From the UHGV virus genome UHGV-0083175: 52,653 nt of DNA; one strand, given 5' to 3'. Numbering within the stretch: position 1 is the stretch's first letter; each line of letters begins with the position of its first letter. This stretch comes from a virus. The notes beneath the pieces were generated by a model. The model made no database searches, was not told the DNA's origin, and saw nothing but the letters and a program-made list of their open reading frames with translations. Position numbers and translations under genes: made by a program. Shown here one piece after another: positions 11,417-49,129 of this stretch.

Positions 11417-11422
11417 ATGGAC

Positions 11423-13729: not shown

Positions 13730-13883
13730 GCATGGTGAATCCCCCTGTGCGGAGGGGTGATATCGTATCATTTCATGTGTGGCCGACTGATATCACGGAC
13801 ATTTGTTCACCGGGAGGCACCCGGCACCTGCAGTATACAGAGATTAGGCATACATCCAGGCTCCTCATCGCAGGAGCCTTTTT
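13730..13883 (+). ncRNA. Structured RNA module, copy D
   Basis: 5' GCATGGTG and 3' CACC-TGC (1-nt gap), variable hairpin GTGATATC/GATATCAC, and a different terminator GGCTCCT..AGGAGCC followed by T5. Confidence 0.45.
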
Positions 13884-13889
13884 ACATGT

Positions 13890-22102: not shown

Positions 22103-22380
22103 TACCTGTGTGGAGCACGGCCTGCCCGGACTGGGCAGAGCGCCTGAAAAAGGGGCTGTCGATTATTCCGGCTCCGATTTACCCGGACCAGGCCGCACAT
22201 GCCCTGGCGATTTTTAAACAACTGCGGATTGTGGATGCACCGGGCAGCCCGACGTTCGGGGAGTCCTGTGCACCGTGGGTGTTTGATCTGGTGGCTGCCC
22301 TGTTTGGCTCCTACGATGCGCAGACCGGTGTACGCCATATAAAGGAAGTGTTCATTCTGATACCGAAAAATAATAGATAA
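22099..22380 (+). pseudogene. terL: Terminase large subunit, 5' fragment (interrupted by the island)
   Basis: The TerL N-terminus ends ..IKEVFILIPKNNR*. The reading frame breaks inside the P-loop at the island junction. Confidence 0.85.
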
Positions 22381-22381
22381 T

Positions 22382-22415
22382 AAAAAAACAAATAAAGTGT
22401 TTATTTGTTTTTTTC
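22382..22415. terminator. AT-rich hairpin terminator at the island left junction
   Basis: AACAAATAAA-gtg-TTTATTTGTT flanked by A- and T-runs. Confidence 0.45.
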
Positions 22416-22543
22416 TACGTTTTATCAAATAGTTATGGTTATCTTTGCTCTATGTTTTTATGTGTTGCTAACGGCAGATTTTAACGCTTTGTTGTTGACA
22501 TGGACTAACCGATGAACCATAAACTTTATCTGTAGGGGCATTT

Positions 22544-23779: not shown

Positions 23780-23791
23780 GGTGTACAATAT

Positions 23792-23998
23792 ATGAATGAT
23801 ATAAATAATAGTCAGATTTTGTTGCGTGATGATGTGATGAAAAAATTGCGATACAACAACGCGGCTGCTTTTCATATGTTTTTTAACAGAACGCCGGACT
23901 TTCCAAAGCCCTTCAAGATAGGCCGTCGCAATGCCTGGTATGAAGAGGATGTGCAAAATTGGCTTGATGAACAGCGAAGAAAAGCCCTTGAGGAGTGA
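23792..23998 (+). CDS. alpA: AlpA-family regulator/excisionase
   Basis: 68 aa, located just downstream of int. The pattern ..FPKPFKIGRRNAWYEEDVQNWL is AlpA-like. Confidence 0.75.
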   Translation: MNDINNSQILLRDDVMKKLRYNNAAAFHMFFNRTPDFPKPFKIGRRNAWYEEDVQNWLDEQRRKALEE

Positions 23999-24056
23999 AC
24001 GTAAAAGAACAGGCGTCCTTAAAGGTCGCCTGTTATGTAGTAGTGGAATATTACAA

Positions 24057-24419
24057 TCATGTTTTTTTTGATGCTATGTAAGCAAGAATGCACGGTTCCT
24101 TTGCCAGTTGTGACCCTTTCGATCTGGCTGTTTTCGCACTGTATCCAGCAAGAATAGCGCACTGTGTCTGATTCAGCCCTTTCATCATGTAATCAGCAAA
24201 TTTCTTTTTTTGCTTCGTCAGCTTGTTTGTTTGGTCGTTTTTATCATCGTTTGCGGTAAAAACATTAGATGTGGTCTTAAGCTGATGTTTACAGGCTTCA
24301 ATTACCCACGATGAGAAGTTGGAGTGCGCTTTATCTCTTTCTATGCGTTTTTCAATATCAGCTAATAAGTCAGGCGGGAAGCGGATCCCCTTAAGTATCG
24401 CTTTGCGTGTTTTGTCCAT
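24057..24419 (-). CDS. Fusion of a YlcI-like RHH domain and a TerS-type N-terminal HTH
   Basis: N-terminus ..GIRFPPDLLADIEKRIERDKAHSNFSSWVIEACKHQL (compare 20640-20840). C-terminus KQKKKFADYMMKGLNQTQCAILAGYSAKTARSKGSQLAKEP (compare the terS N-terminus). Confidence 0.7.
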   Translation of the reverse strand: MDKTRKAILKGIRFPPDLLADIEKRIERDKAHSNFSSWVIEACKHQLKTTSNVFTANDDKNDQTNKLTKQKKKFADYMMKGLNQTQCAILAGYSAKTARSKGSQLAKEPCILAYIASKKT

Positions 24420-24439
24420 TCATGGCCCCAAAATAAGTA

Positions 24440-24535
24440 GTGTTAACTTGTTACTATTTAACAGTTTTTGAGGGTGTGTTAAACAAAAAACTGGTTTGTG
24501 TTTAACGAAAATCGCTTCGTGTTAAACACGTTGCC
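24440..24535. promoter_or_regulatory. GTTAAC / TGTTAAACA repeat cluster (operator-like)
   Basis: GTTAAC at 24442, followed by three TGTTAAAC(A)/GTTTAACA copies upstream of the RHH-HTH gene. Confidence 0.45.
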
Positions 24536-24593
24536 TAGTTAGTGGGGACAGATGACGAGTTGATCAAACCTGCCGGATAACAGGCAAAGAAAA

Positions 24594-24620
24594 GGCCACC
24601 TGTCACGGTGGCCCTTCGAC
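24594..24620 (-). terminator. Intrinsic terminator of the leftward regulatory operon
   Basis: Read on the minus strand: GGCCACCG-tgaca-GGTGGCC followed by TTTTCTTT. Confidence 0.5.
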
Positions 24621-24692
24621 ACAAATTTCGCGTTATCCCCAACGCATGAGCATCGCCGACAATGCCACATTTACGGCTGGTGGACAAGGCTA

Positions 24693-24920
24693 TCAGCCAG
24701 GCGGTCGGTTTTTAGTGGCTTTTAACCGCCGTGGGTATTTCTCGACAAAATCTTCAAGGGCAAATTTTTCTGGTGGCATTAAGCGCGGCGCTGGTGGTGG
24801 TATTTTTGTTCTGGTTAGTTCTTCCTCAACTCTGGCGCAGGCTTCTGACTGCCTTTGCCGGATGATTTCATCATCTTGCGTTTGCGTGTCTTGTATTGGT
24901 GATAGTGTGTTGTTGGTCAT
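24693..24920 (-). CDS. Hypothetical protein
   Basis: 75-aa ORF downstream of the RHH gene on the minus strand. Confidence 0.4.
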   Translation of the reverse strand: MTNNTLSPIQDTQTQDDEIIRQRQSEACARVEEELTRTKIPPPAPRLMPPEKFALEDFVEKYPRRLKATKNRPPG

Positions 24921-24977
24921 GATACTGCCCTGTAAAGCAATGCGCCGTAGTACCTCACACCACGGCGCTGATAGTGA

Positions 24978-25157
24978 TTATTCTGATTCTTTGGCCTTGC
25001 GGCGCTGGCGGCGTTTGATCTCGCCTTTTGCTGCCGTAACTAGAAATCCGGCGGTACTTTCGCCAGGTTCTTTAAGTTGCTCAATATCGGTCATTACCTC
25101 ATGCGGGATTCTGACCGTTGTCATTTGTGATTTTGCGTTCTTTGCACCTGTTGCCAT
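24978..25157 (-). CDS. Small RHH (CopG/Arc-like) regulator
   Basis: The ATG at 25157 follows GGAGA. MATGAKNAKSQMTTVRIPHEVMTDIEQLK.. has the RHH beta-strand pattern. The track ORF is over-extended. Confidence 0.6.
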   Translation of the reverse strand: MATGAKNAKSQMTTVRIPHEVMTDIEQLKEPGESTAGFLVTAAKGEIKRRQRRKAKESE

Positions 25158-25177
25158 TTCTGGTTCTCCTGATAATC

Positions 25178-25270
25178 GGTGTATTTCAGTATACGCAAAA
25201 AAAAAGATAAAAAAAGTCTTGCGGTGTATTTCACCTGAATGTAGATTTAAAAATGAAGGTGAAATACACC
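25178..25270. promoter_or_regulatory. Divergent promoter/operator region of the island
   Basis: Perfect 13-bp inverted repeat GGTGTATTTCACC (25223-25235) / GGTGAAATACACC (25258-25270), plus a half-site at 25178-25188. A TTGCGG-N17-TAGATT promoter overlaps it. Confidence 0.5.
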
Positions 25271-25343
25271 TAAAACAACAACGCCCCGCAGTGATGGGAA
25301 CACATACGGGGCGTCTAACCAACAACGTAAACGAGGAGCCGTT

Positions 25344-25541
25344 ATGGTTGCCGTAAATCATATACCACACCTTGTACACACACAAACGGCCTTTGTGTGG
25401 CGTTTTCTGGCACTGAGTGCCGGAGAATCTCAAATCATCCACGTAACCGCCTGGACGGAACGCGAAGCGCGTAACCGTTGCCCGTCCGGTTGTGTTGCTG
25501 TATTTGCCGCCCGTATTCGTCAGGAGGTGCGCCATGATTAA
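25344..25541 (+). CDS. Icd-like (cell division inhibitor family) small protein
   Basis: ..FVWRFLALSAGES..IHVTAWTEREARNRCP.GCVAVFAARIR resembles recalled Icd-like proteins of P4/PICI elements. Confidence 0.5.
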   Translation: MVAVNHIPHLVHTQTAFVWRFLALSAGESQIIHVTAWTEREARNRCPSGCVAVFAARIRQEVRHD

Positions 25542-25746
25542 TCTGTCACTTACTGACCTTAACCGCATTCAGTTTCGTGAGAAATTCACAGGGCAGCTAC
25601 TGGTCAATGTGGATAAAGGTCGCGTGGTGTGTAATTACCACTTACCAGATGAAGCAATTGTCGCCACAAGGGAATCATTACAGGAAATCACAAAACGTGC
25701 CGGAATGATTAACACGAATATTCAGGGGATGCTTTATGCACAATAA
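25534..25746 (+). CDS. Hypothetical protein
   Basis: ATG after GGAGGTG, overlapping the upstream stop; 70 aa. Confidence 0.45.
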   Translation: MINLSLTDLNRIQFREKFTGQLLVNVDKGRVVCNYHLPDEAIVATRESLQEITKRAGMINTNIQGMLYAQ

Positions 25747-25975
25747 AACCACACCGGACGCAGCCGCCGAAGCCATCAAAACGCTGATGCACGCGCTGAT
25801 TGATATTTCTGTTATCGCGGACAGGGCACATAAGCACGCCACCAGCGAAACAGAATATGCCGGTGCTTTCGTTCCTCACTCACTGGCTGTCATGCAATTT
25901 AGTGCTGATACGGCGCTGAATGAGGCCAAAGCTATCCTGATTGCTGATTGTGAAAATGGGGGGGGTTATGCGTGA
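25736..25975 (+). CDS. Hypothetical protein
   Basis: 79-aa ORF in a coupled gene string. Confidence 0.45.
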   Translation: MHNKTTPDAAAEAIKTLMHALIDISVIADRAHKHATSETEYAGAFVPHSLAVMQFSADTALNEAKAILIADCENGGGYA

Positions 25976-26201
25976 TGATCGTTTTAATTCCCTGAAACAG
26001 GAATTTTCCGGCGTTCCTGATGATGCGGCTGATGCGCTTTCGTCAATGCCAGAACTTATTAGAGCGGCTTTTTTCTTACTTTCCACGAGAGAATATAAAT
26101 CAACGGGGCTTGATGTACTGAATATCGCCGCCGATTATGCGGAATATGTGGCAGAGGCGCGTTATAGAAGAAAATTTCCTGAGGATGTAAGCCATGCGTG
26201 A
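25968..26201 (+). CDS. Hypothetical protein
   Basis: The ATG at 25968 overlaps the upstream stop; 77 aa. Confidence 0.45.
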   Translation: MRDDRFNSLKQEFSGVPDDAADALSSMPELIRAAFFLLSTREYKSTGLDVLNIAADYAEYVAEARYRRKFPEDVSHA

Positions 26202-26427
26202 TATTTACCACCAAACAATAGACCGCGCATTTCTTGCACTTTCTCACAGTGAAAACATGATGGAAATATTGCGCATATGGCTTGAAACACTTGGCGACAA
26301 TGAACGCGACAAACAAAAATCAAGAATTGCCACGGCATTAATAACGCTTCTTGAGCCTGTAATAATGGAACTGCAAGAAATAGATCTATTGCACGACAGA
26401 TATAAAGAACAGCACATCGGAGAATAA
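26194..26427 (+). CDS. Hypothetical protein
   Basis: 77-aa ORF in a coupled gene string. Confidence 0.45.
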   Translation: MRDIYHQTIDRAFLALSHSENMMEILRIWLETLGDNERDKQKSRIATALITLLEPVIMELQEIDLLHDRYKEQHIGE

Positions 26428-26432
26428 AAATA

Positions 26433-26732
26433 ATGAAACTTAAATATTCTGGCTTAACTGCCAGTGGCAACACTCACCCTAAATTTACGCGCGGTGATAT
26501 TTACCGCGACCAGTACGGCGGCACGGTAATGATTAAGGGCGTGGCGGGACGGTGCGTAACTTACCGCCGTGAAGGTTACGAATATGATTGCGTGATGCCT
26601 GTTTATCAGTTCCGGCGTGATTTTTCTCTGGTACAGACCGCGCCGCATAACGTGCCCACCAGCAACGCCAGGGCACGGGCAAACATCCAGAAGCTGAAAA
26701 CCATGATTAACGGATTCAGGGGTAAAAAATGA
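26433..26732 (+). CDS. Hypothetical protein
   Basis: 99-aa ORF whose stop overlaps the start of the rep gene. Confidence 0.5.
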   Translation: MKLKYSGLTASGNTHPKFTRGDIYRDQYGGTVMIKGVAGRCVTYRREGYEYDCVMPVYQFRRDFSLVQTAPHNVPTSNARARANIQKLKTMINGFRGKK

Positions 26733-28126
26733 AACTGGCACCGAATGTAAAACTGTTACCGAAAGATAAACACACCGAAGCGGTTATTTTTGCGGGTGAT
26801 AATGCTCACTCATTTGCAGAGCACTACATCATTGCACAGGCCAAAAAAGCAGGCGATCCAGTCCCTCCCGTTTACCTGGGGCGTTATCAGTTAAGCGAAC
26901 TGGATAACTTGCAGATTGTTGATAAAGGTCGGTTCAGGGCGAAAGTGATACGTGCCGGAAATATTGACGAAGTGCAGTTGTTAACCATCGCCACGAAACT
27001 GGCAATCGCAGGAGTCCAGGAAGCGCGCCTGTTTTCTGAAAATTTCGAATTGCTGGAGGAATGGAGCGACCAGCTTACACGGCTTAGGGAGACATGGGAA
27101 CGCGGGGAAAGCCTGAGCCACCAGCGAAAAACAAAGCTACCGATGAGCGTTGGATCTGCCGGATACGACACGCAATTAGATTACGTGGTAAAGGGGATTA
27201 TTCCGGCATCGTCGCTATGCAGCATATACGGGGCGAGCGGTTCATATAAATCGTTCCTTGCGGGTTCGTGGGCGTGTCACGTTTCCACGGGCCGCCAGTG
27301 GGGAGGCCGCAGGGTTGCACATGGTGCAGTTCTCTATGTGGTTGGTGAAGGCGGTATTGGTGTTCCGCGTCGTGTAAAAGCCTGGGAGGTTGTGCACGGT
27401 GAGCAGGTGAAAAATCTGTATCTGGTAAACCGTCCCATCTTTCCGGCTGTCCCGCTTGATGTTGATGAAATGGTTATCGCTGCCCGCCAGGTGGAACGGG
27501 AAACCGGTAAACCTGTACGCATGATTATTCTGGATACGCTGGCGCGTTGCTTTGGCGGCAATGATGAAAATGACTCCCGCGACATGGGGGCATTTATCCG
27601 TGGTTGTGACGAGCTTAAACGGCGCACAGGGGCCACTGTGCTGGTGGTTCACCATTCCGGCAAGGATGAAACAAAGGGGGCGCGTGGTTCCAGTGCATTT
27701 CGTGCTTCGCTGGATGCTGAATACCGGATACGCAGGGAGGACGCAGGAAGCGAAGCGCTGGTTATCTCATGCACCAAAATGAAGGACGCGGAGGAACTCA
27801 AAGAGGCTGCCTATGATTTGCGGGTGGTGGAGCTTTTTACCGACGCTGACGGGGAGTTAATCACGTCGCTGGTGGTGGTGGATAAGTCGCGCCCTCCCGT
27901 TGAACTGGAGCGCATCGAAGAGGCAGGCAACAAGACGGAAAACCATACCGCGCTATGGGGGTGTATCCGTTCACGCACACAGAACGGCGACAAGTGCACG
28001 ATCCCGCTGTTACGTGATGACATGAAAAAACTGGGGTACGAAATAAAGCACTTCCGGCGCTGGCTGGGCAAGCTGGAAAAAGACGGCGTTATCTATGTTG
28101 ACGGCGATGATGTAGGGCCACTGTAA
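26729..28126 (+). CDS. Replication protein, RepA/AAA_25-type (RecA-like) helicase, Pri-Rep-like
   Basis: Walker A-like YGASGSYKSF, Walker B-like RMIILDTLARCFGG.DEND, and ..VLVVHHSGKD..KGARGSSA. Iterons follow immediately. Confidence 0.8.
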   Translation: MKLAPNVKLLPKDKHTEAVIFAGDNAHSFAEHYIIAQAKKAGDPVPPVYLGRYQLSELDNLQIVDKGRFRAKVIRAGNIDEVQLLTIATKLAIAGVQEARLFSENFELLEEWSDQLTRLRETWERGESLSHQRKTKLPMSVGSAGYDTQLDYVVKGIIPASSLCSIYGASGSYKSFLAGSWACHVSTGRQWGGRRVAHGAVLYVVGEGGIGVPRRVKAWEVVHGEQVKNLYLVNRPIFPAVPLDVDEMVIAARQVERETGKPVRMIILDTLARCFGGNDENDSRDMGAFIRGCDELKRRTGATVLVVHHSGKDETKGARGSSAFRASLDAEYRIRREDAGSEALVISCTKMKDAEELKEAAYDLRVVELFTDADGELITSLVVVDKSRPPVELERIEEAGNKTENHTALWGCIRSRTQNGDKCTIPLLRDDMKKLGYEIKHFRRWLGKLEKDGVIYVDGDDVGPL

Positions 28127-28328
28127 AAAGTGGGGGGCAAAAGTGGTGGGCATGGGGAATTTAACAAAATTTAAACACGACCCCCCACTTTTTGACCTGT
28201 ATACATCCCAAAAAGTGGGGAGCAAAAAAATACTTATGAAACAGCATGATAAAAATTACAAATCCCACGCCTTTAACGAGATGGGGAATTGTGAAAAGTG
28301 GGGAGTAAAAGTGGGTATAGGTGGGGAG
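28127..28328. repeat. Island replication origin iterons (AAAGTGGGG repeats)
   Basis: At least 6 copies of AAAGTGG(G/T)GG(A)G in both orientations (28127, 28140, 28181 inverted, 28211, 28294, 28308), flanking an AT-rich spacer at 28224-28262. Confidence 0.6.
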
Positions 28329-28580
28329 ATGACACAAAAACGCAGAGACAGAACACAGCCAAAATATAAAGCGTTAGACATGACAGAGCACGCTTTAAAG
28401 GTGGCAATCAGAACGATAGACCGCCACGCGGGGGAAGGATACGCGAAGGAACATCCCGACCTGATAAGCGCATTCATGACCACAGCGGCGGCAAACTTTG
28501 CCACGCTGACAGAACGGGAGATTGCCGAAGCGGAACAGGTAACAACCATCAACGTTAAAACCGGAGAGTTGGAATCATGA
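28329..28580 (+). CDS. Hypothetical protein
   Basis: The likely start is the ATG at 28329, after the iterons. The track ORF start (28143) would read through the origin. Confidence 0.4.
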   Translation: MTQKRRDRTQPKYKALDMTEHALKVAIRTIDRHAGEGYAKEHPDLISAFMTTAAANFATLTEREIAEAEQVTTINVKTGELES

Positions 28581-28882
28581 GCGAACCAAAATTTGGTGAA
28601 AAACTTTACAAGCACAACGGACGGATCACGATTCTGCAAATAAGCGCAGCTACACCAGGCTGGTGGGTTGAAACAGACGAAGGATCCTCACCCGTGGCAT
28701 CATGGGCGCTTTGTGCGCTTAGTTACCCTGACCGCGATGTGTATCAGGATATTCTGCCTGTGATATCCACTGACAAAGGCATGAAACCCGTAGACATCAA
28801 AAACATGGGTTTTCAGTGCGTAATGCTCACTGAAAAAATGATGGAAGAGATGAAAAAGAACAACGCCGGATCGCTTCACTGA
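28577..28882 (+). CDS. Hypothetical protein
   Basis: 101-aa ORF, coupled to the upstream gene. Confidence 0.5.
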   Translation: MSEPKFGEKLYKHNGRITILQISAATPGWWVETDEGSSPVASWALCALSYPDRDVYQDILPVISTDKGMKPVDIKNMGFQCVMLTEKMMEEMKKNNAGSLH

Positions 28883-28891
28883 GGTGGCAAT

Positions 28892-29290
28892 ATGACAGCA
28901 CAAATTGCAGCTTACGGGCGGCTGGTGGACGACCCGCAGGTAAAACAGACCAGCAAGGGCACACCGATGACGCTGGCGCGTATGGCGGTATCTTTGCCAT
29001 GCAGCCAGGCACAGGACGGACAGGCGACGTTATGGTTATCGGTCATCGCATTTGGCAAACAGGCCGACTTCCTGGCTAAACATCAAAAAGGAGATGTTGC
29101 CAGCGTATCCGGCACGATGCAGGTAAGCCAGTGGACAGGCCAGAACGGCGAAACGCGGCAGGGCTGGCAGGTTATCGCAGACAGCGTAATCAGTGCCCGA
29201 GGCGGGAACAGACGCAAAACCACAGGCACACAGGGTAATCAGCCACCAGCGGGAGGCGATGACCCTTACGGTGATGGTATTCCGTTCTGA
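28892..29290 (+). CDS. ssb: Single-stranded DNA-binding protein
   Basis: OB-fold pattern (..GRLVDDPQVKQTSKGTPMTLARMAV...W..V.AFGKQA..L...KGD...V.G......W), a Gly/Pro-rich tail and an acidic tip DGIPF. Confidence 0.85.
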   Translation: MTAQIAAYGRLVDDPQVKQTSKGTPMTLARMAVSLPCSQAQDGQATLWLSVIAFGKQADFLAKHQKGDVASVSGTMQVSQWTGQNGETRQGWQVIADSVISARGGNRRKTTGTQGNQPPAGGDDPYGDGIPF

Positions 29291-29300
29291 GGGGGTGAGG

Positions 29301-29573
29301 ATGGTACATGACCGCATAGCGGAGGAACTCGAGGCGAAAGGATTTTACCGGAGGGCGGCGGCGCGATGGGGTGAAGTCATGCAGCTGGTGGAGACAGACA
29401 AGGAACGGTATCAGGTTACGATGCGACGGCTGGAATGTTCCAGGAAGGCACAGAAGCCACCGGAGCCGCCGGATAACTTCGGAGACCTGAGAAAGGCAGT
29501 CGATCGCACTTATGCTGAAATGGGTATAGATGGTGCAGGCGATGAAGTATGGCGTAATTACCCAGACAGCTAA
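29301..29573 (+). CDS. PerC/Pch-family transcriptional activator-like protein
   Basis: MVHDRIAEELEAKGFYRRAAARWGEVM.. resembles the recalled PerC family core (LE..G.YRRAA.RW.EV). Confidence 0.6.
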   Translation: MVHDRIAEELEAKGFYRRAAARWGEVMQLVETDKERYQVTMRRLECSRKAQKPPEPPDNFGDLRKAVDRTYAEMGIDGAGDEVWRNYPDS

Positions 29574-29578
29574 GCACA

Positions 29579-29602
29579 TAGCCGGAGCAATCCGGCTTTT
29601 TT
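29579..29602 (+). terminator. Intrinsic terminator
   Basis: AGCCGGA-gcaa-TCCGGCT followed by T7. Confidence 0.75.
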
Positions 29603-29691
29603 TCGATCTCACATATCTTTAAAAATGGTTGATTGATTATAATCTATCGAAAATAATGATTATGAGATGATAAGCATCAGGAGGAAACAAA

Positions 29692-29886
29692 GTGGAACAG
29701 ATAAAGCAAAGCGCTACCGTGATGATTGATCACGAGATCCTAAACGAGCTTAAAAAACTTCAATTCGATGTTATTCGCCGGATGAATGAAGCTGGTATAT
29801 ACGGCAGAGCCGCCACGCCAACAGTAGGCCATCTTGCTCGCGTGCTGTTACGCGAACGCCTGGGCATTGCAACAGGTGAGGAATAA
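29692..29886 (+). CDS. Hypothetical small protein (RHH-like N-terminus)
   Basis: GTG start 8 nt after AGGAGG; 64 aa. Confidence 0.45.
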   Translation: MEQIKQSATVMIDHEILNELKKLQFDVIRRMNEAGIYGRAATPTVGHLARVLLRERLGIATGEE

Positions 29887-29888
29887 CA

Positions 29889-30050
29889 ATGGTTATCACA
29901 GAACGCGAGGCAAGCATCATTAAAGCCATTGGCGAGGAAACAAGAGACACGATAGCGCCATTAATGGAAAAGATCGCAGAGCTTGAGACACGAATAAACA
30001 AGCTGAGTGATGAAGTTGAAGGCCTGATCTCGTTACTCGGTGAGCAATGA
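29889..30050 (+). CDS. 53-aa protein resembling the N-terminus of the helper repeat protein (below the track cutoff)
   Basis: MVITEREASIIKAIGEE.. compared with the helper protein at 36907, MNERELSIIRALGEE... It has a coiled-coil tail. Confidence 0.45.
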   Translation: MVITEREASIIKAIGEETRDTIAPLMEKIAELETRINKLSDEVEGLISLLGEQ

Positions 30051-30115
30051 CAGGGGGGGGGGAGTGTTCCGGCCGGAAAGTCGATCGCCCTGGACACCGC
30101 CCCCCGTCTCATTCG
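30051..30115. other. Island cos-like site
   Basis: G10 (30053-30062) ... CGATCGCCCTGGACACC-G-CCCCCC-GTCTCA, homologous to helper 21255-21312. Confidence 0.5.
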
Positions 30116-30138
30116 TAGAAAATTTTGCTTTTCAAAAA

Positions 30139-30412
30139 AGTTACACGAAAAGTTACACCCCCTCAAAACGAGGTTTTTGCATGGCATTAACGACCAAAAA
30201 AAAGCGGTTTGCTGATGCGTTATCAAGGGGCGCAAATCCCACGGAAGCCGCTATACATGCGGGATACAGCGAAAAGACCGCAAGGGTTAAAGGCTGGCAG
30301 CTATCCAACGATCCTGAGGTGAAAAAGTATCTTAAGGTTGTCACTCCTGATGTAACTTTTCAGGTTACAAAACCGAAAAAAGTTACAAAGAAAGTTACCG
30401 AAAAAGTTACAC
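30139..30412. repeat. (A/G)GTTAC(A/C) repeat array spanning the terS-like 5' region
   Basis: Copies at 30139, 30151, ~30351 (inverted), 30363, 30381, 30393 and 30405. The last three are spaced 12 bp apart. Confidence 0.55.
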
Positions 30413-30669
30413 CGGAACGGGCATCAATCAGCACCATAGAACGGATGGACAACGGCTTGCCCGACCCTATCAAAGCTATGGGCAGGATACTGGCTGACAA
30501 CATAGACACAGATCCAAAACTGGCTTTAGATGCCGCGTTTAAGCTGGCCCAGTTCACCCACCGCAAGATCGGCAGCATTGGGAAAAAAGAGGTTAAAAAA
30601 CTCAATGCCGCGAATGTCTCCTCAAATCGGTTCCCCATCCCTAAGCCACCAACAGGCTTAAAACACTGA
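30181..30669 (+). CDS. Island-encoded terminase small subunit paralogue
   Basis: The HTH KKKRFADALSRGANPTEAAIHAGYSEKTARVKGWQL and C-terminus MDNGLPDPIKAMGRILADNIDTDPKLALDAAFKLAQFTH closely parallel the helper TerS. Confidence 0.8.
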   Translation: MALTTKKKRFADALSRGANPTEAAIHAGYSEKTARVKGWQLSNDPEVKKYLKVVTPDVTFQVTKPKKVTKKVTEKVTPERASISTIERMDNGLPDPIKAMGRILADNIDTDPKLALDAAFKLAQFTHRKIGSIGKKEVKKLNAANVSSNRFPIPKPPTGLKH

Positions 30670-30680
30670 GGTAGCGAACT

Positions 30681-30842
30681 ATGAACGAATACATCACAGA
30701 CCCTATTGATGTACTCACGGAAATCATGAACGACAAGCAGCAGCCAACCGAAATACGGTTACAGGCTGCCGCTGTTCTGATGCCATATTTTCACGAAACT
30801 CTAACCCCATGTTACCAGGAGGAAGAAGATGATGATTTCTAA
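30681..30842 (+). CDS. 53-aa hypothetical protein (below the track cutoff)
   Basis: MNEYITDPIDVLTEIMNDKQQPTEIRLQAAAVLMPYFHE.. with an acidic tail. It overlaps the next start. Confidence 0.45.
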   Translation: MNEYITDPIDVLTEIMNDKQQPTEIRLQAAAVLMPYFHETLTPCYQEEEDDDF

Positions 30843-31755
30843 AAACATGAAAGGCGTGTCGGCAGTTCGCGCCGCCAGCGTGCTTACATCGTGTAAATTC
30901 AGCCATGCAGACGCAATTGAAATGACGAAAAAAAATGATCCGGCAGTATCGAAATTTCTTGAAAAATCCATTGTTGCCGGAATGACTACGGATAATATGC
31001 CGTCGCTGGTGGCAGAGCCGATAGTAAGAGAGCTTGGCGAGTATATTTTTTCGCAGTCTGTACCAGGCAAGCTAATCAGCAGCGCGCTGAATCTTCCGTT
31101 TGGCGCAAAATTGCAGTCAATATCAGGCAAGGGTAGTAAATGGCTTAAAGAAGCCGAAGAAATCCCTGTCAAAGAGGGAGAAGTAAACGAAAGTGCGCTA
31201 AAACTGTGCAAACTTGGCGCTATTGTGATGCTGAATAACGAGCTAATCAAATTTAGCACCCCTGGTACCAATTCAGCGATCAGAGACTTGATCACATCGG
31301 AATCGGTGAAAGAAATAGATAAAAAATTTCTTTCCAGTGACCAGGAGTTGGCGGGCGTATCCCCTGAGGGCGTGCTTAATGGTGCTGATGAGGCCGAAAA
31401 CTTCATAGAGCTTTTCAAAAAGCACATAGCGAACGGTAACACGCTTGCCACGTCGTCGCTAATCTTGCCCGTAGAAAACGCCTTACAGCTTACTGATGCT
31501 GAGTTCTGGCAGATAGAGCTTTTGAGAATACCGGTAATTGTGAGCGAACAGGCGGATCGCATGATGCTGATAGACGCTCAAAAGCTGATTATTAACGTTG
31601 AAGCCACGGTTATAACCCCAACTGATGAGGCGGTAATAAAAACCGAATCAGGGACGGTTAGCCTTTTCCAGAATGACGCTACAGCGTTCAGGGCAATCAC
31701 CTATTGCGGATGGCAAAAACTCGATAAGGCCGTCACCGTTCTGGCGCAATCTTGA
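30829..31755 (+). CDS. HK97-fold major capsid protein paralogue (no protease/scaffold part)
   Basis: Several blocks align by eye to the C-terminal half of 33397-35334, for example ..LCKLGAIVMLNNELIKFSTPGTNSAIRDLI.. against ..AKVSAIAVLTEELIRFSSPAADALVRNAL... Confidence 0.7.
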   Translation: MMISKNMKGVSAVRAASVLTSCKFSHADAIEMTKKNDPAVSKFLEKSIVAGMTTDNMPSLVAEPIVRELGEYIFSQSVPGKLISSALNLPFGAKLQSISGKGSKWLKEAEEIPVKEGEVNESALKLCKLGAIVMLNNELIKFSTPGTNSAIRDLITSESVKEIDKKFLSSDQELAGVSPEGVLNGADEAENFIELFKKHIANGNTLATSSLILPVENALQLTDAEFWQIELLRIPVIVSEQADRMMLIDAQKLIINVEATVITPTDEAVIKTESGTVSLFQNDATAFRAITYCGWQKLDKAVTVLAQS

Positions 31756-31932
31756 TGTAGTGCGCCGCATTACTGGTTATGTGAATGCGGCGCATAGGGC
31801 CTACGAAAAACAAAATTAGTTTACGTTATCTTATGTAACCATATTTAACGGAGAAGACTAAAACGCGGACTATTTAGTGTCAGTGCGTGAGCCTAACAGC
31901 ATAATAAACAAGATATTAAGATAGCTTTACGC

Positions 31933-33333
31933 ATACCCAAAAAAAACAGCAAGTCCACGCTGGCTGCCGGGATCATGATGACGGCGCTGTTACTGAACTG
32001 GCGGCAGGCGGCGGGCTACACCATTCTGGCCCCGACCGTGGAGGTGGCGGCTAATGCCTTCAATCCTGCCAGGGATATGGTACGACGGGACGATGATCTG
32101 GATGACCTCTGTCAGGTGCAGACACATATCCGGACCATCACCCATCGGGTGACGGACACCACCCTGAAGGTGGTGGCAGCCGATCCGAATACGGTGTCCG
32201 GTATCAAGTCCGTGGGGACACTGATTGATGAACTGTGGCTGTTTGGCAAGCAGTACAAAGCGGAGGACATGTTACGTGAAGCCATAGGTGGCCTTGCCTC
32301 CCGCCCGGAAGGGTTTGTGGTGTATACGACCACCCAGTCGAATGAACCGCCCGCCGGGGTGTTCAGACAGAAACTGCAGTACGCCCGGGATGTGCGCGAC
32401 GGCAAAATTCATGATCCGCACTTTCTGCCGGTGATATTTGAGCATCCGCCGGAGATGGTGGAGCGCGGTGAGCACCTGCTGATGGAAAACCTCGCCATGG
32501 TCAATCCGAATCTCGGTTATTCGGTGGATGAGGCCTTTCTGTACCGGGAGTATCGTAAAGCCCGGGAAGCCGGTGAAGATACATTCCGGGGGTTCATGTC
32601 AAAACACGCCAATGTGGAAATTGGTCTTGCCCTGCGTTCTGACCGCTGGGCGGGTGCGGATTTCTGGGAGCAGCAGGGCAGGCGCGTCAGCCTGGACGAT
32701 ATTCTGCAGCGCGCTGATGTGGTGACGGTGGGGATTGACGGCGGGGGCCTGGATGATCTGCTGGGAATGTACGTGATTGGCCGTGACAGGGAAACCCGCG
32801 AATGGCTGGGCTGGGGCCATGCCTGGGCGCATGAAACCGCGGTGGTCAGACGGAAGAGTGAGGCATCCCGTTTTCAGGATTTTGTGGCCTGTGGAGACAT
32901 GACGATTGTCCGTCGGGTCGGGGATGACACGGCGGAAGTGGCGGAGTATGTGCGTCGTATTCATGAGGCTGAGTTACTGGATCATATCGGTATTGACCCG
33001 TCAGGTGTGGGGCAGATTCTGGATTCACTGGCGGAAGCCGGGATCCCCGACGGAATTGTTGTGGGGATAAGCCAGGGCTGGAAGCTGGGCGGGGCCATCA
33101 AAACCACCGAGCGCAAACTGGCTGAGGGAGTGCTGGTGCATGGTGGTCAGCCACTGATGGCCTGGTGCGTTGGCAATGCCCGGGTGGAGCCTAAAGGTAA
33201 CGCCATCCTTATTACCAAACAGGCCAGCGGACGGGGGAAAATTGACCCGCTGATGGCGCTGTTCAATGCGGTATCCCTGATATCCCTGAATCCGGAGCCC
33301 AAAAAGAAAGAATATGCGGTTTTTTTCATATAA
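31933..33333 (+). pseudogene. terL: Terminase large subunit, 3' fragment
   Basis: The frame is open from 31933 (IPKKNSKSTLAAGIMMTALLLNW...). The track ORF begins at the internal ATG 31975. It continues 22099-22380. Confidence 0.85.
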
Positions 33334-44200: not shown

Positions 44201-44525
44201 GAGTGCATACAGTAACAGTATTGTGGACACGCCCACGTACTTTGCCTTTGCAAAAGGGGCAGGGCTGATGGGGGAGGCCGGACCTGAAGCCATCATGCCC
44301 CTGACCCGGGCAGCGGATGGTTCACTCGGCGTGCGTGCGGTGGGCCGCATGAACGGCAGTGCGGGTCTGGTGTATTCCCCGGTGTACCACATCGCCATTC
44401 AGAATGACGGCGCTAACGGGCAGATAGGGCCGGAAGCGGCGGGCACCCTTGTGCAACTGATAGACCAGAGGGTACAGGCGGTGATGTTATCCATGCGTCG
44501 TGACGGAGGAATGCTGAGTGGATGA
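41283..44525 (+). CDS. Tape measure protein
   Basis: 1080 aa, long alpha-helical A/Q/L-rich sequence, in the position after G/GT. Confidence 0.9.
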   Translation: MATLRELIIKISANSQSFQSEIQRASRMGSEYYRTLQNGGRQAAAAAREQRRALAELNSQLTEIRASAVGMTGAFAGAFATGHLISLADEWSSVNARLKQASQSSDEFSSSQKVLMDISQRTGTAFSDNAALFARSAASMREYGYSADDVLKVTEAISTGLKISGASAAEAGSVITQFSQALAQGVLRGEEFNSVNESGDRIIRALAAGMGVARKDLKAMADDGQLTADKVVPALISQLGILRDEYAAMPETVSDGITKVENAFMAWVGGANEASGATKTLSGALNGVAGNIDTVATAAGVLVAVGVARYFGNLASGAMSATAGLVTAARNEVALAEAQLRGTQIATARARAAVYRAQQAVAAARGTEMQIAAEARLAVTQERLNRNIAARTAAQNALNSTTAVGSRLMSGALGLVGGVPGLVMLGAAAWYTLYQNQEQARESAHQYALTIDEIAHKTPSMSLPEASDNEGRTREALTEQNRLIDEQASRVKSLQEKIAGYQYVLANPGWTTGNGFMINHLTSVKTVTEGLAQATEQFAVEQSRLAQMQEKAQSIQDVLAGLEERRVVLIRQQAAEQNKAYQSLLIMNGQHTEFNRLLGLGNELLQQRQGLASVPLRLPQATLDDKQQGALNNTERQLALSRLKGEEKERARLGYAADDLGLVGDTYQEARQRYIRNSMEAWRNNEASKPKSRAGKSGAEKAEDSFSRLLKQQKEQLALAGKNTELAKLKYQTSQGELKTLTEIQKQELLRNAALIDQKKIREQLRAREEALKNDNADERASNDAELLGYGQGERVRERMRELQQIRDGYRQKDADLQSQYQTGDISEDFYRQALAQNAQYLSERLKDQEAFYAESDAQRADWQKGLQEGLSNWVDSASDYASQAAQLATDGISGMVNNITEMLNGNKVEWRSWAASILQEISKVLMNAAIVNGIKMAANSMSGAGGFFGSIGNWLGGAVANAKGGVYTSANLSAYSNSIVDTPTYFAFAKGAGLMGEAGPEAIMPLTRAADGSLGVRAVGRMNGSAGLVYSPVYHIAIQNDGANGQIGPEAAGTLVQLIDQRVQAVMLSMRRDGGMLSG

Positions 44526-44859
44526 GATTAAGACCCTTCACTGGTGTCCCCGGGAAGGGATGCAGGTGACGGAGAAACCGTCGGTGGTGACGGTGAAGTT
44601 TGGCGACGGTTATCAGCAACGTCGTCCGGCAGGACTGAATGCGCAACTGAAGACCTTTCAGGTGGTTTTTCGGGTGACAACGGATGCTGAGCGGGAGGCA
44701 CTGTCCGCGTTTCTGTCATGGCATGGTGGTTACCGGGCTTTTTTGTGGAAGCCCCCGAAACATAACCGGACGGTCAGGGTGGTGTGCCGGGAGTGGAGTA
44801 TTACGGATAACGCCCGGTACAGTGATTTCAGTTGTACGATAGAGCAGGTAGTTGGATGA
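44518..44859 (+). CDS. M: Minor tail protein M
   Basis: Size, position and lambda gpM-like sequence (..VKFGDGYQQR...GLN.....). Confidence 0.8.
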   Translation: MDEIKTLHWCPREGMQVTEKPSVVTVKFGDGYQQRRPAGLNAQLKTFQVVFRVTTDAEREALSAFLSWHGGYRAFLWKPPKHNRTVRVVCREWSITDNARYSDFSCTIEQVVG

Positions 44860-44944
44860 GAATTATCCTATAAATCACTCTTTATTGTTTAGTTGTTAAT
44901 TATTTTTAATCTGTCTTGTCAGAAAGTGCGAAATCGATCTTGTA

Positions 44945-44964
44945 TTTACATTTTGTTACATAAT
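44945..44964 (+). promoter_or_regulatory. OmpR-box-like site upstream of the porin gene
   Basis: TTTACATTTTGTTACATAAT compared with the recalled ompC C1 box TTTACATTTTGAAACATCTA. A second ACATCTAAA element lies at about 45013. Confidence 0.4.
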
Positions 44965-45057
44965 ATAAATTGAACTAAGAATTTGTATTAAAATATTTTA
45001 ATTTTTGTTCATGACATCTAAATGCATGAATAGTTCAGTTTAAATAAGGATTAAATC

Positions 45058-46212
45058 ATGAAAAAAATGACAGTGGCACTTTCTGCTGTAGCAGTGGCAG
45101 TGATGTTTGCTGCGGGGGCGCAGGCAGCAGAAGTTTATAATAAAGATGGTAATAAACTGGATCTTTACGGGCGTGCAACCGCTCTGCATTACTTCTCGGA
45201 TGATAAAGGTAATGACGGAGACCAGACTTATGCTCGTCTCGGCTTTAAAGGCGAAACGCAGATTAATGATCAACTGACCGGATTTGGTCAGTGGGAATAC
45301 CAGTTCTCTGGTAACAAAACGGAATCTGAAGGTTCCGCGGGAAATAAAACCCGTCTGGCATTTGCAGGTCTGAGATTTGCAGATGTTGGTACCATTGATT
45401 ACGGACGTAACTATGGTATTGCTTACGATGTCGGATCATATACTGACGTACTGCCTGAGTTTGGTGGTGATGGCTGGACGCAGACCGATAACTTTATGAC
45501 GGCCCGAACTTCCGGTGTCCTGACTTACCGTAATACAGACTTCTTCGGACTGGTTGATGGTCTGAATTTTGCGGCGCAGTATCAGGGCAAAAATGAGCGT
45601 GATGACCTTCAGAAGGCTAATGGCGACGGGTATGGTTTCTCGGCCAGCTATGAGTTTGATGGTTTTGGTTTTGTCGCTGCGTATACCAAGTCAGATCGTA
45701 CTGATAAGCAGGTTCAGGGGTTGAATGGTACTGCAGATGTTCTTGATCCTGCATCAGGTAAAAAGGTTGGAGAAAAAGCAGTTGACTCAGGTAGTGTGGC
45801 AAAAGGTAAACATGCTGAATTCTGGGGAACTGGTCTTAAATATGATGCCAATAACCTGTATCTGGCAGCAGTGTATTCTGAAACCCAGAATATGACGACC
45901 TTTGGTGATCAAGGTGTTGCGGATAAAGCTCAGAATATCGAAGCCGTTGTTCAGTATCAGTTTGATTTTGGTCTGCGCCCGTCCCTTGCCTACCTTCAGT
46001 CCCGCGGACAGGATGTTATGGTTGGTGGTGTGAACCATGGCGATCAGGATCTGGTTAAATATATTGATGTCGGTGCGACTTATTACTTTAACAAGAATAT
46101 GTCCACCTATGTTGATTATAAAATTAACCTGATTGATGAAAGTGAATTTACCCGGAAAGCCGGTGTTGCGACAGATAATATCGTTGCTGTGGGTATGACT
46201 TATCAGTTCTGA
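45058..46212 (+). CDS. General (OmpC/OmpF/NmpC-family) porin, moron in the tail operon
   Basis: Signal peptide ..[20 protein letters not shown], then ..GFGQWEYQF.., ..DYGRNYG.., and C-terminal ..VAVGMTYQF. Confidence 0.9.
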
Positions 46213-46385
46213 TTATTGCTGATAAGTTAATAAATACGGGCCGTCTGCCCTTACAGGCGGCCTGTATCAATGAAAACACAGTTTTCATTGGTCACTGCGA
46301 TCAGCAATTGCCATCTGGCATGTGCTGATTTAACTTTCTGTTATTACCTTTATTGGTTTTATTTTAAATTGGACTTTTATTGTTC

Positions 46386-46409
46386 GGGGCGCGTCTGCGC
46401 CCCTTTTTT
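46386..46409 (+). terminator. Strong intrinsic terminator after the porin cassette
   Basis: GGGGCGC-gtct-GCGCCCC followed by T6, 12 nt before the gpL start. Confidence 0.8.
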
Positions 46410-46421
46410 ATGGGCGGATAT

Positions 46422-47120
46422 ATGCAGGATATTCACGAAGAAAGCCTGAACGAGTCGGTTAAGTCAGAGCAGTCACCGCGGGTGGTGCTCTGGGAAATCG
46501 ACCTGACGGTGCAGGGCGGTGAGCGGTATTTTTTCTGCAATGAGCTGAATGAAAAAGGGGAGCCAGTGACCTGGCAGGGGCGTGAATATCAGGCGTACCC
46601 GATTGAGGGCAGCGGCTTTGAGATGAACGGAAAGGGCAGCAGTGCCCGCCCGTCGCTGACAGTGTCCAATCTTTTCGGGCTGGTCACCGGGATGGCGGAG
46701 GATTTGCAGAGCCTGGTGGGTGCCACGGTGGTCCGTCGCCGGGTGTATGCGCGTTTTCTGGATGCGGTGAATTTTGTGGCAGGCAATCCTGAGGCAGACC
46801 CGGAGCAGGAGCTGACGGACCGGTGGGTGGTGGAGCAGTTATCAGAGCTGACGGCCATGACGGCCTCGTTTGTGCTGGCGACACCGACGGAGACGGACGG
46901 TGCGCTGTTTCCCGGTCGCATCATGCTGGCGAACACCTGTATGTGGGATTACCGGGGCGATGAGTGCGGGTATAACGGTCCGGCAGTGGCGGATGAGTTC
47001 GACAACCCCACCACGGATATCCGGAAGGACAGATGCAGTAAATGCATGCGCGGGTGTGAGATGCGCGGCATGGCGGTCAATTTTGGCGGTTTCCTTTCCA
47101 TCAATAAACTTTCGCAGTAA
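46422..47120 (+). CDS. L: Minor tail protein L
   Basis: MQDIHEESLNESVKSEQSPRVVLWEIDL.. and the C-terminal Cys cluster match recalled lambda gpL. Confidence 0.9.
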   Translation: MQDIHEESLNESVKSEQSPRVVLWEIDLTVQGGERYFFCNELNEKGEPVTWQGREYQAYPIEGSGFEMNGKGSSARPSLTVSNLFGLVTGMAEDLQSLVGATVVRRRVYARFLDAVNFVAGNPEADPEQELTDRWVVEQLSELTAMTASFVLATPTETDGALFPGRIMLANTCMWDYRGDECGYNGPAVADEFDNPTTDIRKDRCSKCMRGCEMRGMAVNFGGFLSINKLSQ

Positions 47121-48452: not shown

Positions 48453-48456
48453 AAAT

Positions 48457-48550
48457 AAAAAAAATCCCGCAGAGTTAGCGGAGCTGCGGGAAATAACGAT
48501 GAAGATTAACGTTATGGAGTTATTTTTTTGGGCAGAAGAACAGTAACGCA
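48457..48550 (-). ncRNA. Candidate sRNA, I-J unit 1
   Basis: Minus-strand -10 AATAAT (plus coordinates 48556-48561). The body contains ACGTTAATCTTCATCG. Terminator TCCCGCAG..CTGCGGGA followed by T8. Confidence 0.4.
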
Positions 48551-48647
48551 GCGTCATTATTGCGGCTACAGGCAATTGCCGGAAGTGTGAATAAACTCAG
48601 AATTTTTATTCCGTTGTGGTGATGCCCGGGCTGGCCAGTGACGGGAT

Positions 48648-48745
48648 AAAAAAATCCCGCAGAGTCCGGAGACTGCGGGACAGAACCGATGAAGATTAAC
48701 GTTCAAGGAGTTTTGTTTTTATTGACCCGAAAAAACTGTAACGCC
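48648..48745 (-). ncRNA. Candidate sRNA, I-J unit 2
   Basis: Minus-strand -10 TATCAT (plus coordinates 48751-48756), the same ACGTTAATCTTCATCG core, and a TCCCGCAG..CTGCGGGA terminator followed by T7. Confidence 0.4.
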
Positions 48746-48881
48746 CCGGAATGATATCTGCCACGGGAACGTACAGAAAATGTGAAGAAATTCAGACTTT
48801 TTCTGTCGCAGGTTTACAGAACGGATGACCGCCAGGGTACCAGTGGCGTAAATGAGCAGGATGTTGTGGTGTGGCTGAAGC

Positions 48882-48985
48882 AAAAAAATCTCCCGTAATA
48901 TCGCCGGATACTGACGGGAGACGAATAGTCACCTTAAGGAGGTCTGATAATTATTGCTTTTATTGAGCAAAAAAACTGTAACGCT
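48882..48985 (-). ncRNA. Candidate sRNA, I-J unit 3
   Basis: Minus-strand -10 TATAAT (plus coordinates 48991-48996). The body contains ACCTCCTTAAGG. Terminator TCTCCCGT..ACGGGAGA followed by T7. Confidence 0.4.
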
Positions 48986-49056
48986 GCGTCATTATAGTGG
49001 CTACAGGCAATTGCCGGAAATGTGAAGAATTTCAGAAATTTTATTCCGTCATGACA

Positions 49057-49087
49057 CAGGCACCCTCCGGGGTGCCTGTCGTTTTCT
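49057..49087 (+). terminator. Hairpin terminator upstream of J
   Basis: CAGGCACC-ctccgg-GGTGCCTG followed by tcgttttct. Confidence 0.5.
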
Positions 49088-49129
49088 GGCATAAACAGAT
49101 TCAGACATCAGACAGGAGAGGGGGACAGA

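Follow-up and report, generated by a model that had tools for sequence, protein, structure and literature searches.

The virus genome UHGV-0083175 (52,653 nucleotides, referred to at its full length as the window), a lambda-like prophage, carries an AT-rich insert of 1563 bp at positions 44860–46422, exactly between the stop codon of gpM and the start codon of gpL, two minor tail protein genes. The insert comprises a gene for a general porin, an upstream region with a box resembling the OmpR sites of ompC and ompF, and a structured 3′ RNA resembling IpeX that ends in an intrinsic terminator. Taken together, these features probably represent an autonomous lysogenic-conversion ‘porin swap’ cassette, a paralogue of the Lc/NmpC–IpeX module residing in a distinct and conserved slot. 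Judged by the evolutionary criteria available from sequence, the cassette is functional.

The insert and its porin

The boundaries of the insert were defined by junction alignments to two insert-free phages, Stx2a_1447 and phi330. In these relatives the stop codon of M runs into the start codon of L, the two forming TGATG (AACTGATGCAG), and the extra 1563 bp of the window falls at this overlap. To the left lies gpM (44518–44859, plus strand; Pfam Phage_min_tail, 3.2e-33), whose product ends in ..EQVVG in the window versus ..EQVVN in the insert-free relatives. To the right lies gpL (from the ATG at 46423 to 47120, plus strand; Pfam Phage_tail_L, 5.8e-93), and the tape-measure, I and J genes surround the gpM–porin–gpL arrangement. 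The G+C content is 57–63% in M and L, 26–28% upstream of the porin and 40–50% within it. The two ends of the insert, compared for direct repeats, resemble each other weakly at most (GGATGAGAATTAT versus ATGCAGGATATT). A complete porin cassette between M and L had been described in a first-pass annotation of the window, and this is confirmed by the open reading frame (ORF), the Pfam matches and the junction alignments. The marks of a moron are present, in that M and L are adjacent in related phages, the base composition is deviant and the insert has its own terminator. With its foreign composition, a probable promoter and a position between genes adjacent in relatives, the cassette is probably a moron, this probability being the joint one for the whole explanation given above. 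In phi330 itself (locus L003, 10175–11770) M and L adjoin, and an Arc-like repressor, the anti-repressor Ant and another ORF lie between L and K. From this gene order, several junctions of the phi330-type tail module accept cargo.

The porin gene (45058–46212, plus strand) is an ORF of 1155 nt encoding 384 residues, with a signal peptide at residues 1–23 (AQA/AE, within MKK..AGAQA/AEVYNK), LPEFGGD at residues 132–138, corresponding to the PEFGG of loop 3, and a C-terminal MTYQF. The porin shares its family, PEFGG in loop 3 and a C-terminal Phe with the products of chromosomal ompC and ompF. The protein matched Pfam Porin_1 (PF00267) over profile positions 1–337 of 337 (E = 5.9e-144) and the OmpC, OmpF, PhoE and OmpK36 structures in the PDB with E-values from 1e-131 to 1e-111, the OmpC structures being the best (1e-131). 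An AlphaFold2 model reproduced the expected strand pattern and, because of its low confidence (mean pLDDT 60), was used for strand order only.

The porin had been termed ‘OmpC-type’ in the first-pass annotation. It does pass NCBIfam NF007841 ‘porin OmpC’, which is a subfamily model and not an equivalog, by a narrow margin (507.7 bits against a cut-off of 484). However, its gap-free identity is 72–73% to Lc, NmpC and OmpD but 64.5% to K-12 OmpC and 62% to OmpF, and because of this and the narrow pass the label is a name and not a statement of orthology. A phylogenetic comparison, which had been proposed as a check, was run, and the porin is not an OmpC orthologue. In a neighbour-joining tree the porins found between M and L formed a single clade inside the NmpC/Lc/OmpD group, sister to Lc/NmpC and not nested within it, and did not group with chromosomal OmpC. 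Moreover, the locus is a prophage tail operon, and an Rfam search found no divergent micF or micF-like neighbour. Salmonella OmpD belongs to the same subgroup (72% identical to the cassette porin) but is a chromosomal core gene.

Outside surface loop 5 (L5) the ratio of nonsynonymous to synonymous divergence (dN/dS) is 0.03–0.08, with dS ranging from 0.1 to 2.2 between variants. Because synonymous sites are heavily diverged and yet dN/dS is this low, the gene has long been kept functional, and the barrel is under strong purifying selection. Only one of 18 distinct proteins is damaged, P0021, which carries a 27-residue internal deletion and is probably dead. In the clade alignment almost all variation in length and sequence is confined to residues 214–251 (45697–45810, plus strand), an extended surface loop that joins strands 9 and 10 and is hypervariable and rich in indels. 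This was assigned as L5 from the AlphaFold2 strand order and from alignment to the OmpC structure 3upg. The dN is 0.11–0.60 in L5 versus 0.004–0.077 in the barrel. L5 is much longer than in Lc/NmpC, and at 38 residues exceeds the roughly 18 that, by our own count, we take OmpC to have. The hypervariability suggests that the phage porin is itself attacked by phages, colicins or antibodies.

Distribution and a fixed slot

Among 50,697 deposited phage genomes 151 matched the query, none of them beyond the two flanks. The best phage-borne porins found by protein search were 67–69% identical and comprised NmpC, Lc and ‘OmpD’ genes of lambda-like phages, P7, PA-2 and 434. The whole M–porin–L stretch was found in 109 of 5426 complete E. 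coli genomes (~2%), in two main nucleotide variants that are ~99% and 95.8% identical, and many of the carriers are Shiga-toxin-producing strains of human, cattle and food origin. Over the coding sequence alone, 93 records were at least 80% identical. In carrier E. coli genomes the cassette porin is always annotated ‘porin OmpC’ (‘ompC: porin OmpC’ in RefSeq). The arrangement is also present on 30 IMG/VR contigs and in Citrobacter farmeri (P0006). The first-pass annotation had allowed that the M–porin–L arrangement might turn out to be both common and already characterised. It is not rare, but full-text searches of the literature returned no description of a porin between M and L.

In a large protein collection the clade stands apart, with relatives 78–100% identical, the next at most 71% and no intermediates between 71 and 78%. 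At all 47 loci with porins 78–100% identical, M and L flank the porin, and the diverged members P0009, P0010, P0015, P0021 and P0006 have M–porin–L as their gene context. By tblastn over the fetched loci, the flanking M and L are 47–100% and 44–100% identical, respectively, to those of the window, and the tape-measure genes upstream are of both the HK97 and the lambda type. None of 50 NmpC-type IMG/VR loci (69% identity), nor PA-2 or DLP12, has M/L flanks beside its porin, in agreement with the earlier remark that known phage porins lie elsewhere. An exception to the slot is variant P0018 (79%; L005–L007, porin at 4001–5113), which lies outside any tail operon among IS66, Rop and type VI secretion system effector (Tle1-like) genes. 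Here the 3′ end of M stands in front of the cassette and a remnant of L behind it, and the upstream box and the 3′ RNA are kept.

Several loci point to movement by recombination. At L013 (3643–4000) the order is the resident M, a degenerate piece of the 5′ part of L, a second 3′ fragment that stems from a different M, and then the cassette. Read from its sequence, this arrangement is a scar of recombination between different tail modules, with the cassette imported together with part of M. Recombination on this type of evidence occurs inside the cassette too. In L035 the upstream region (2290–2503) is 56% identical to that of the window, being L014-like, and the 3′ region (3662–3873) is 90% identical. 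The contigs L045, L049 and L050 (IMG/VR 643348545_000009, _000013 and _000008) share one genome prefix and each hold M–porin–L of the 84% variant, so that a single genome appears to hold three copies of the cassette.

The nearest outgroup, P0027 (L102, 3640–5120; 71–77% identical), is not in a phage, shows no M/L remnants and lies near a CdiI_5 immunity gene. Its locus has an AAAGTG-GAAA-CGAT block, a ATTACAATTTGTTACA box, a TTGGAA −35-like hexamer and, behind the porin, the 3′ RNA, which scored 95 bits with the covariance model described below. Because this non-phage locus has the box, the −35-like hexamer and the RNA, the box–porin–RNA unit is older than its residence between M and L, and the L102 locus may represent the ancestral, chromosomal form of the unit.

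The RefSeq name and the passing of the NCBIfam OmpC cut-off would be expected if the cassette were a recent accidental capture of host ompC, or a passenger in decay. This is highly improbable given the low identity to K-12 OmpC, the saturated synonymous divergence at low dN/dS, the constancy of the slot across very diverged tail modules and the missing micF-like neighbour. Capture or decay is refuted by slot constancy, tree position and dN/dS.

Upstream region and 3′ RNA

Six conserved upstream blocks are common to seven cassettes that are only 35–59% identical at their 4-fold degenerate sites, and the flanks of the porin gene are more conserved than its silent sites (window versus L008: 77% upstream and 71% downstream, against 47% at 4-fold sites). 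The strongest block, TTTACATTTTGTTACA(TAAT), holds a 20-bp box, TTTACATTTTGTTACATAAT (44945–44964, plus strand), that resembles the OmpR sites C1 of ompC and F1 of ompF. The K-12 sites were read from the promoters as TTTACATTTTGAAACATCTA (C1) and TTTACTTTTGGTTACATATT (F1), and the box matches these at 15 of 20 and 17 of 20 positions, respectively. It is the sole exact match to the C1/F1 degenerate consensus in the window, with 0.14 matches expected at two or fewer mismatches. Using a weight matrix built from the six K-12 sites, the box scored 15.0, a value reached by none of 2000 shuffles. By comparison, F1 and C1 scored 15.5 and 14.7 against themselves, and the best leave-one-out score of the known sites was 12.7. 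The box recurs in six other cassette variants with scores of 8.9–16.4, and the upstream DNA of Lc/NmpC, likewise AT-rich, has a degenerate version scoring 7.5. The OmpR-box-like site at 44945–44964 proposed in the first-pass annotation is thus upheld by sequence match and by conservation across variants with saturated synonymous sites, whereas the second element that it proposed, ACATCTAAA (present at 45014–45022), is not conserved and has a low OmpR score. Further upstream, the block TGTCTTGTCAGAAAGTGCGAAATCGATCTT (44911–44940, plus strand) includes TGTCTT..CA.AAAGTGC, which is invariant in the seven diverged cassettes, and is recognisable in L102.

A putative plus-strand promoter follows the box, consisting of a −35 element TTGAAC (44970–44975) and a −10 element TATTTT (44994–44999) with an 18-bp spacer, in which TTGAA and AAATA are invariant across the seven cassettes. 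The proposed TTGAAC-N18-TATTTT promoter is weak by sequence. Its predicted start near 45005 would give a leader of ~52 nt. The box is separated from the −35 element by 5 bp, equal to the gaps between C3 and TTGGAT in ompC and between F3 and TAGCGA in ompF, hexamers which we take to be the −35 elements of those genes. In the alignment of seven cassettes the leader contains the conserved blocks GTTCATGACA and CATGAATAGTTCA together with the Shine-Dalgarno sequence AAGGA at 45046–45050 (45007–45050 overall, plus strand). The leader is collinear with that of lc/nmpC (TGACATC...AATAGTTCA...AAGG), but the similarity is weak and by nhmmer not significant (E ~2), so that the promoter region is only possibly homologous to that of lc. 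Within the porin gene, complements of the 5′ seed of K-12 RybB (taken from L104) are present on the plus strand at CAGTGGC (45071–45077, codons 5–7) and at AGCAGTGGC (45090–45098, 9 nt). The first of these, at +14, is conserved in most cassette variants and in lc/nmpC, and both nmpC, a reported target of RybB, and OmpD, a target of several small RNAs including RybB, provide parallels (PMC3333887).

The regulator that would act at the box need not be OmpR. The minus-strand reading of the box, GTAAC-N5-GTAAA, agrees with what we take to be the direct-repeat consensus of CpxR, and CpxR is a plausible alternative reader on this basis. A minority possibility, though one to be taken seriously, is that the cassette is expressed in lysogens with the box read by CpxR or by CRP, as annotated for lc, or with silencing by H-NS relieved by a specific signal, and without osmoregulation by OmpR/EnvZ. 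Consistent with this, the cassette has one site and not the C1-C2-C3 triplet, the PA-2 lc record annotates CRP sites and not OmpR sites, the second conserved block at 44911–44940 has no assigned factor, and a G+C content of 26–28% is typical of H-NS-bound DNA. Against this stand the score of the box, which is like those of the high-affinity sites F1 and C1 and above any leave-one-out score, and the 5-bp spacing to the −35 element, which is that of C3 and F3.

Downstream of the porin, a structured RNA of 197 nt (46213–46409, plus strand) extends from the stop codon to a T run and was identified by its fold, covariation and a covariance model; the first-pass annotation had overlooked it. It consists of three hairpins (46234–46267, 46268–46290 and 46299–46330), a single-stranded A/U-rich tract and a terminator at 46386–46409. 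The single-sequence fold is more stable than those of shuffles (z = −7.6). Across 17 distinct versions, standard pairs occupy 98.6% of pair cells and 11 of 38 pairs covary, compared with a mean of 5.5 in column shuffles (0 of 500 reaching 11) and 0–4 for slid partners. The terminator, GGGGCGC-GTCT-GCGCCCC followed by T6, has a 7-bp all-G·C stem and is invariant in 16 of the 17 variants. This is the strong terminator noted in the first-pass annotation, with the start of L 13 nt, and not 12, after the T run.

A covariance model built solely from M–L cassettes (R1) gave one full-length match starting from the porin stop codon in PA-2, in DLP12 and in every NmpC-type IMG/VR locus searched (n = 50 overall), with 34–36 bits and rough E-values of ~4e-6 to 3e-5 at lc/nmpC loci. 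Apart from these matches and the one at L102, nothing was found at E ≤ 1 in 341 kb, a set that took in other phage DNA (50 kb) as well as the ompC and ompF loci of K-12. The RNA behind lc/nmpC has the same layout of three hairpins, an A/U tract and a terminator, but all three stems differ in sequence from those of the cassette. On the evidence of the model and the layout, the 3′ RNA is homologous to the IpeX region downstream of lc/nmpC. IpeX reportedly lies between the nmpC stop codon and the terminator, as described in the primary study of Castillo-Keller et al. in 2006. PA-2 likewise encodes IpeX, which lowers OmpC and OmpF (PMC8065619; PMC5069750). IpeX appears not to be an Rfam family. 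Searches against Rfam, of the whole window at gathering scores and of 44800–46500 at E ≤ 5, gave no hit in the cassette or its vicinity, the best match being NsiR9 with 19 bits against a cut-off of 90.

The sole primary sequence common to the two RNA families lies in the single-stranded tract, where the alignment of versions identified a conserved motif, TAACTTTCTGTTATTACCTTTATTGGT (46331–46357, plus strand), with TTATTACCTT invariant at 46341–46350. The motif reads CUGUUAUUACCUUUAUU in M–L cassettes and CUGUUAUAUAUUACCCUUUAUU in lc/nmpC, with CUGUUAU..UUACC(C)UUUAUU common to both. Duplexes were predicted between motif segments of 23–28 nt, from eight M–L versions and lc IpeX, and the region −40 to +12 of four genes. 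With K-12 ompC the duplexes had energies of −19.2 to −24.5 kcal/mol (z from −4.2 to −6.5), and none of 300 shuffles was as good. With K-12 ompF they had energies of −13.5 to −20.5 kcal/mol (z from −2.7 to −4.4; 0 to 3 of 300 shuffles, p 0.000–0.010). The cassette’s own leader (−4.9 to −9.0 kcal/mol) and the lc leader (−4.3 to −10.3 kcal/mol) behaved the same as shuffles, with z ~0. The Shine-Dalgarno sequence was always covered in the ompC and ompF duplexes, and complementarity to ompC was kept in all motif versions although the register differs among them. The segment 46331–46357 is a candidate for an antisense seed that acts on the ribosome-binding regions of ompC and ompF in the host. Folding of longer duplexes, between the 70-nt tract and leaders of 110–140 nt, gave unrealistically long duplexes and was replaced by the motif-segment test.

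Proposed mechanism, related modules and significance

In a lysogen the late operon would be silent, and transcription of the cassette would start from its own weak promoter, helped by a response regulator bound at the C1/F1-like box, most likely phosphorylated OmpR and possibly CpxR. The transcript would stop at the intrinsic terminator (46409), so that the tail-tip genes L-K-I-J stay off, and the mRNA would give rise to a general porin assembled in the outer membrane. The exposed UUAUUACCUU-containing motif of the 3′ RNA would pair with the ribosome-binding regions of ompC and ompF and lower their synthesis, while the cassette’s own mRNA would escape pairing. The net result would be replacement of the major host porins by a phage porin with a long, fast-evolving L5, with altered susceptibility to porin-dependent phages, colicins and contact-dependent toxins and with altered antigenicity and permeability. 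The RybB seed match on the porin mRNA would mean that envelope stress can still repress the porin. What we infer here is that the promoter is used, which regulator acts on it, that lysogens express the cassette, that ompC and ompF are repressed and that exclusion follows. As a precedent for expression, NmpC of the LF82 prophage Perceval is expressed in the lysogen, 10-fold above the local background (PMC9928086).

During lytic growth, RNA polymerase modified by the late antiterminator Q would read through the cassette terminator. The Q gene is present at 6977–7648 (plus strand; Pfam Phage_antiter_Q, 1.3e-90), and by analogy we infer that Q is needed for the late transcript to pass into L-K-I-J. 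The first-pass point that the terminator makes the tail-tip genes depend on antitermination is therefore sound, although this is standard lambda biology and not special to the cassette.

An alternative is that the porin is a late lytic gene, made only from the Q-dependent tail transcript and serving infection or lysis. The gene is indeed co-oriented with the late operon and lies inside it, no consensus plus-strand promoter was found, and genes of the Lc/NmpC type are by contrast oriented against late transcription (DLP12 annotation). However, autonomous morons are marked by just such a strong terminator immediately behind them and by conserved, AT-rich DNA in front that holds a regulator-like box, and the flanks are more conserved than synonymous sites. 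A protein that carries a signal peptide and must be assembled as a porin requires both machinery and time, a poor match to a late lytic role, and the variant at L005–L007 keeps the upstream region and the 3′ RNA without a late operon. A purely late role is thus unlikely.

It is also conceivable, if rather doubtful, that the benefit lies in bacterial physiology or interaction with the animal host, through permeability or evasion of serum and antibodies, and not in exclusion of phages or colicins, with the 3′ RNA acting merely as a stabiliser and terminator. Hypervariable surface loops are also typical of immune-selected porins, many carriers are Shiga-toxin-producing isolates from humans and cattle, and the sequence of the prophage’s own J does not indicate its receptor. 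This J is 85% identical overall to that of the OmpC-dependent phi330 but diverges over the last ~140 residues of the C-terminal domain, and the closest ends are those of Stx phages for which no receptor is named. What speaks for exclusion is that the motif keeps its complementarity to ompC and ompF through eight sequence versions and avoids its own leader, that the homologue IpeX is reported to lower OmpC and OmpF, and that OmpC-dependent phages carry the sister module. Lysogens of PA-2 are said to make Lc and lose OmpC, with OmpC being the receptor of PA-2. Phage 434 likewise uses OmpC (PMC12502783), its nmpC being disrupted by IS5.

A number of observations weigh against the interpretation of the insert as an autonomous porin-swap cassette. 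The cassette is co-oriented with the late operon and so is transcribed in lytic growth too. Three tandem OmpR sites as in ompC and ompF are missing, the next-best plus-strand 20-mer scoring 1.6, and a strict sigma-70 consensus scan found no plus-strand promoter, the proposed hexamers matching at 8 of 12 positions. A search by nhmmer with 18 upstream regions against the ompC, ompF, lc and nmpC loci gave the ompC C1 box as the best hit at E 0.2, which is not significant. The E-values of the covariance model are rough, with scores that derive partly from the generic terminator, and the duplex predictions used short sequences and mononucleotide shuffles and ignored intramolecular structure. The window prophage is itself probably defective, as judged from an insertion of ~9.5 kb in terL. 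The original IpeX study reportedly found no complementarity to ompC. In later accounts IpeX is stated to act on ompC without pairing (review PMC3617542; PMC10690425). A broader proposal is tentative and held at less than even confidence. It treats the M–L cassette and Lc/NmpC–IpeX as separate branches of one mobile porin-swap unit of old origin, made up of a regulator box, a variable-loop porin and an antisense 3′ RNA, in which the RNA would silence ompC and ompF by direct pairing and spare its own mRNA.

Several other features of the prophage were noted. In strain 2012EL-2448 the reference prophage has its integration site beside ompW and lacks stx, as is also the case in RM9387, and in both strains the large terminase gene terL is uninterrupted (1662 nt). 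In the window the ~9.5-kb element (22381–31974) separates a 5′ piece of terL (22099–22380) from the nuclease part (31975–33333). It contains genes for an integrase (22544–23779), an AAA_25 protein (26729–28126), SSB (28892–29290) and a small terminase (30040–30669) and a capsid-family ORF (30829–31755), and from this content, replication proteins among it, resembles a phage-inducible island or satellite of the capsid-forming kind. The slot that holds stx in Stx phages, behind Q and the tRNA genes, has no stx gene. The slot contains a 142-residue ORF with a TolA C-terminal domain (10675–11103; E 4.6e-22) and an AraC-family regulator (11799–12524). Made as a free domain, TolA domain III could hinder colicins that depend on Tol, or filamentous phages. 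Downstream of the tRNAs lie four copies of the STnc100 small-RNA family (11210–13889; 119–172 bits), and a sok antitoxin RNA lies beside a hok-type gene (4801–4975). Between I and J, a 678-nt gap (48453–49129) has no annotated gene, a G+C content of 44–47% against 55–64% around it and no Rfam hit. The corresponding gap is 910 nt in RM9387. The gap may be another moron slot, or else a small gene or RNA.

The closest relatives of the cassette are the modules of Lc (PA-2) and NmpC (DLP12), which like it are phage-borne general porins of the NmpC/OmpD group. They differ in place and orientation, since Lc/NmpC lie between Q and the lysis genes and face against late transcription, while the cassette lies at M/L and follows it; the Q-to-lysis interval of the window prophage holds no porin. 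In contrast to ompC and ompF, which belong to the EnvZ/OmpR regulon and are controlled by MicF, MicC and RybB, the cassette is mobile and prophage-borne and has its own putative anti-porin RNA in cis. Among the morons of tail regions, lambda lom, HK97 gp15 and cor of phi80 and N15 are extra genes of deviant composition with their own terminators between late genes, encoding envelope proteins that alter the lysogen surface or block superinfection. Unlike the cassette, they occupy other slots (after J, or between tape-measure gene and M) and encode small proteins, and to our knowledge none is a porin and none has a regulatory RNA. The moron concept itself is said to be that of Juhala et al. in 2000.

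Phage porins have been known since 1975 and IpeX since 2006. What appears new, from the comparisons made here, is a fixed slot in the tail operon across unrelated tail modules, an authentic-looking OmpR/CpxR box, a hypervariable loop and comparative support for antisense action. Many phages, colicins, contact-dependent toxins and antibiotics enter the cell through porins, which are also major antigens. A unit that installs a variable porin and silences the host porins would change these properties in ~2% of sequenced E. coli, among them many Shiga-toxin producers isolated from patients, cattle and food. Labelled automatically as ‘porin OmpC’, the unit stays hidden, and typing or resistance calls based on ompC can be confused by the name. 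Nine natural versions of the 3′ RNA offer a ready comparative test of the action of IpeX-type RNAs, and the M/L slot, which stays constant while the tail modules differ widely, is well suited to the study of moron movement. If the two-branch proposal is true, the porin-swap reading would call for a correction of the published account, in which IpeX needs no complementarity to act on ompC, and the cassette would be a general shield against superinfection and colicins that recombination has repeatedly moved between unrelated tail modules.

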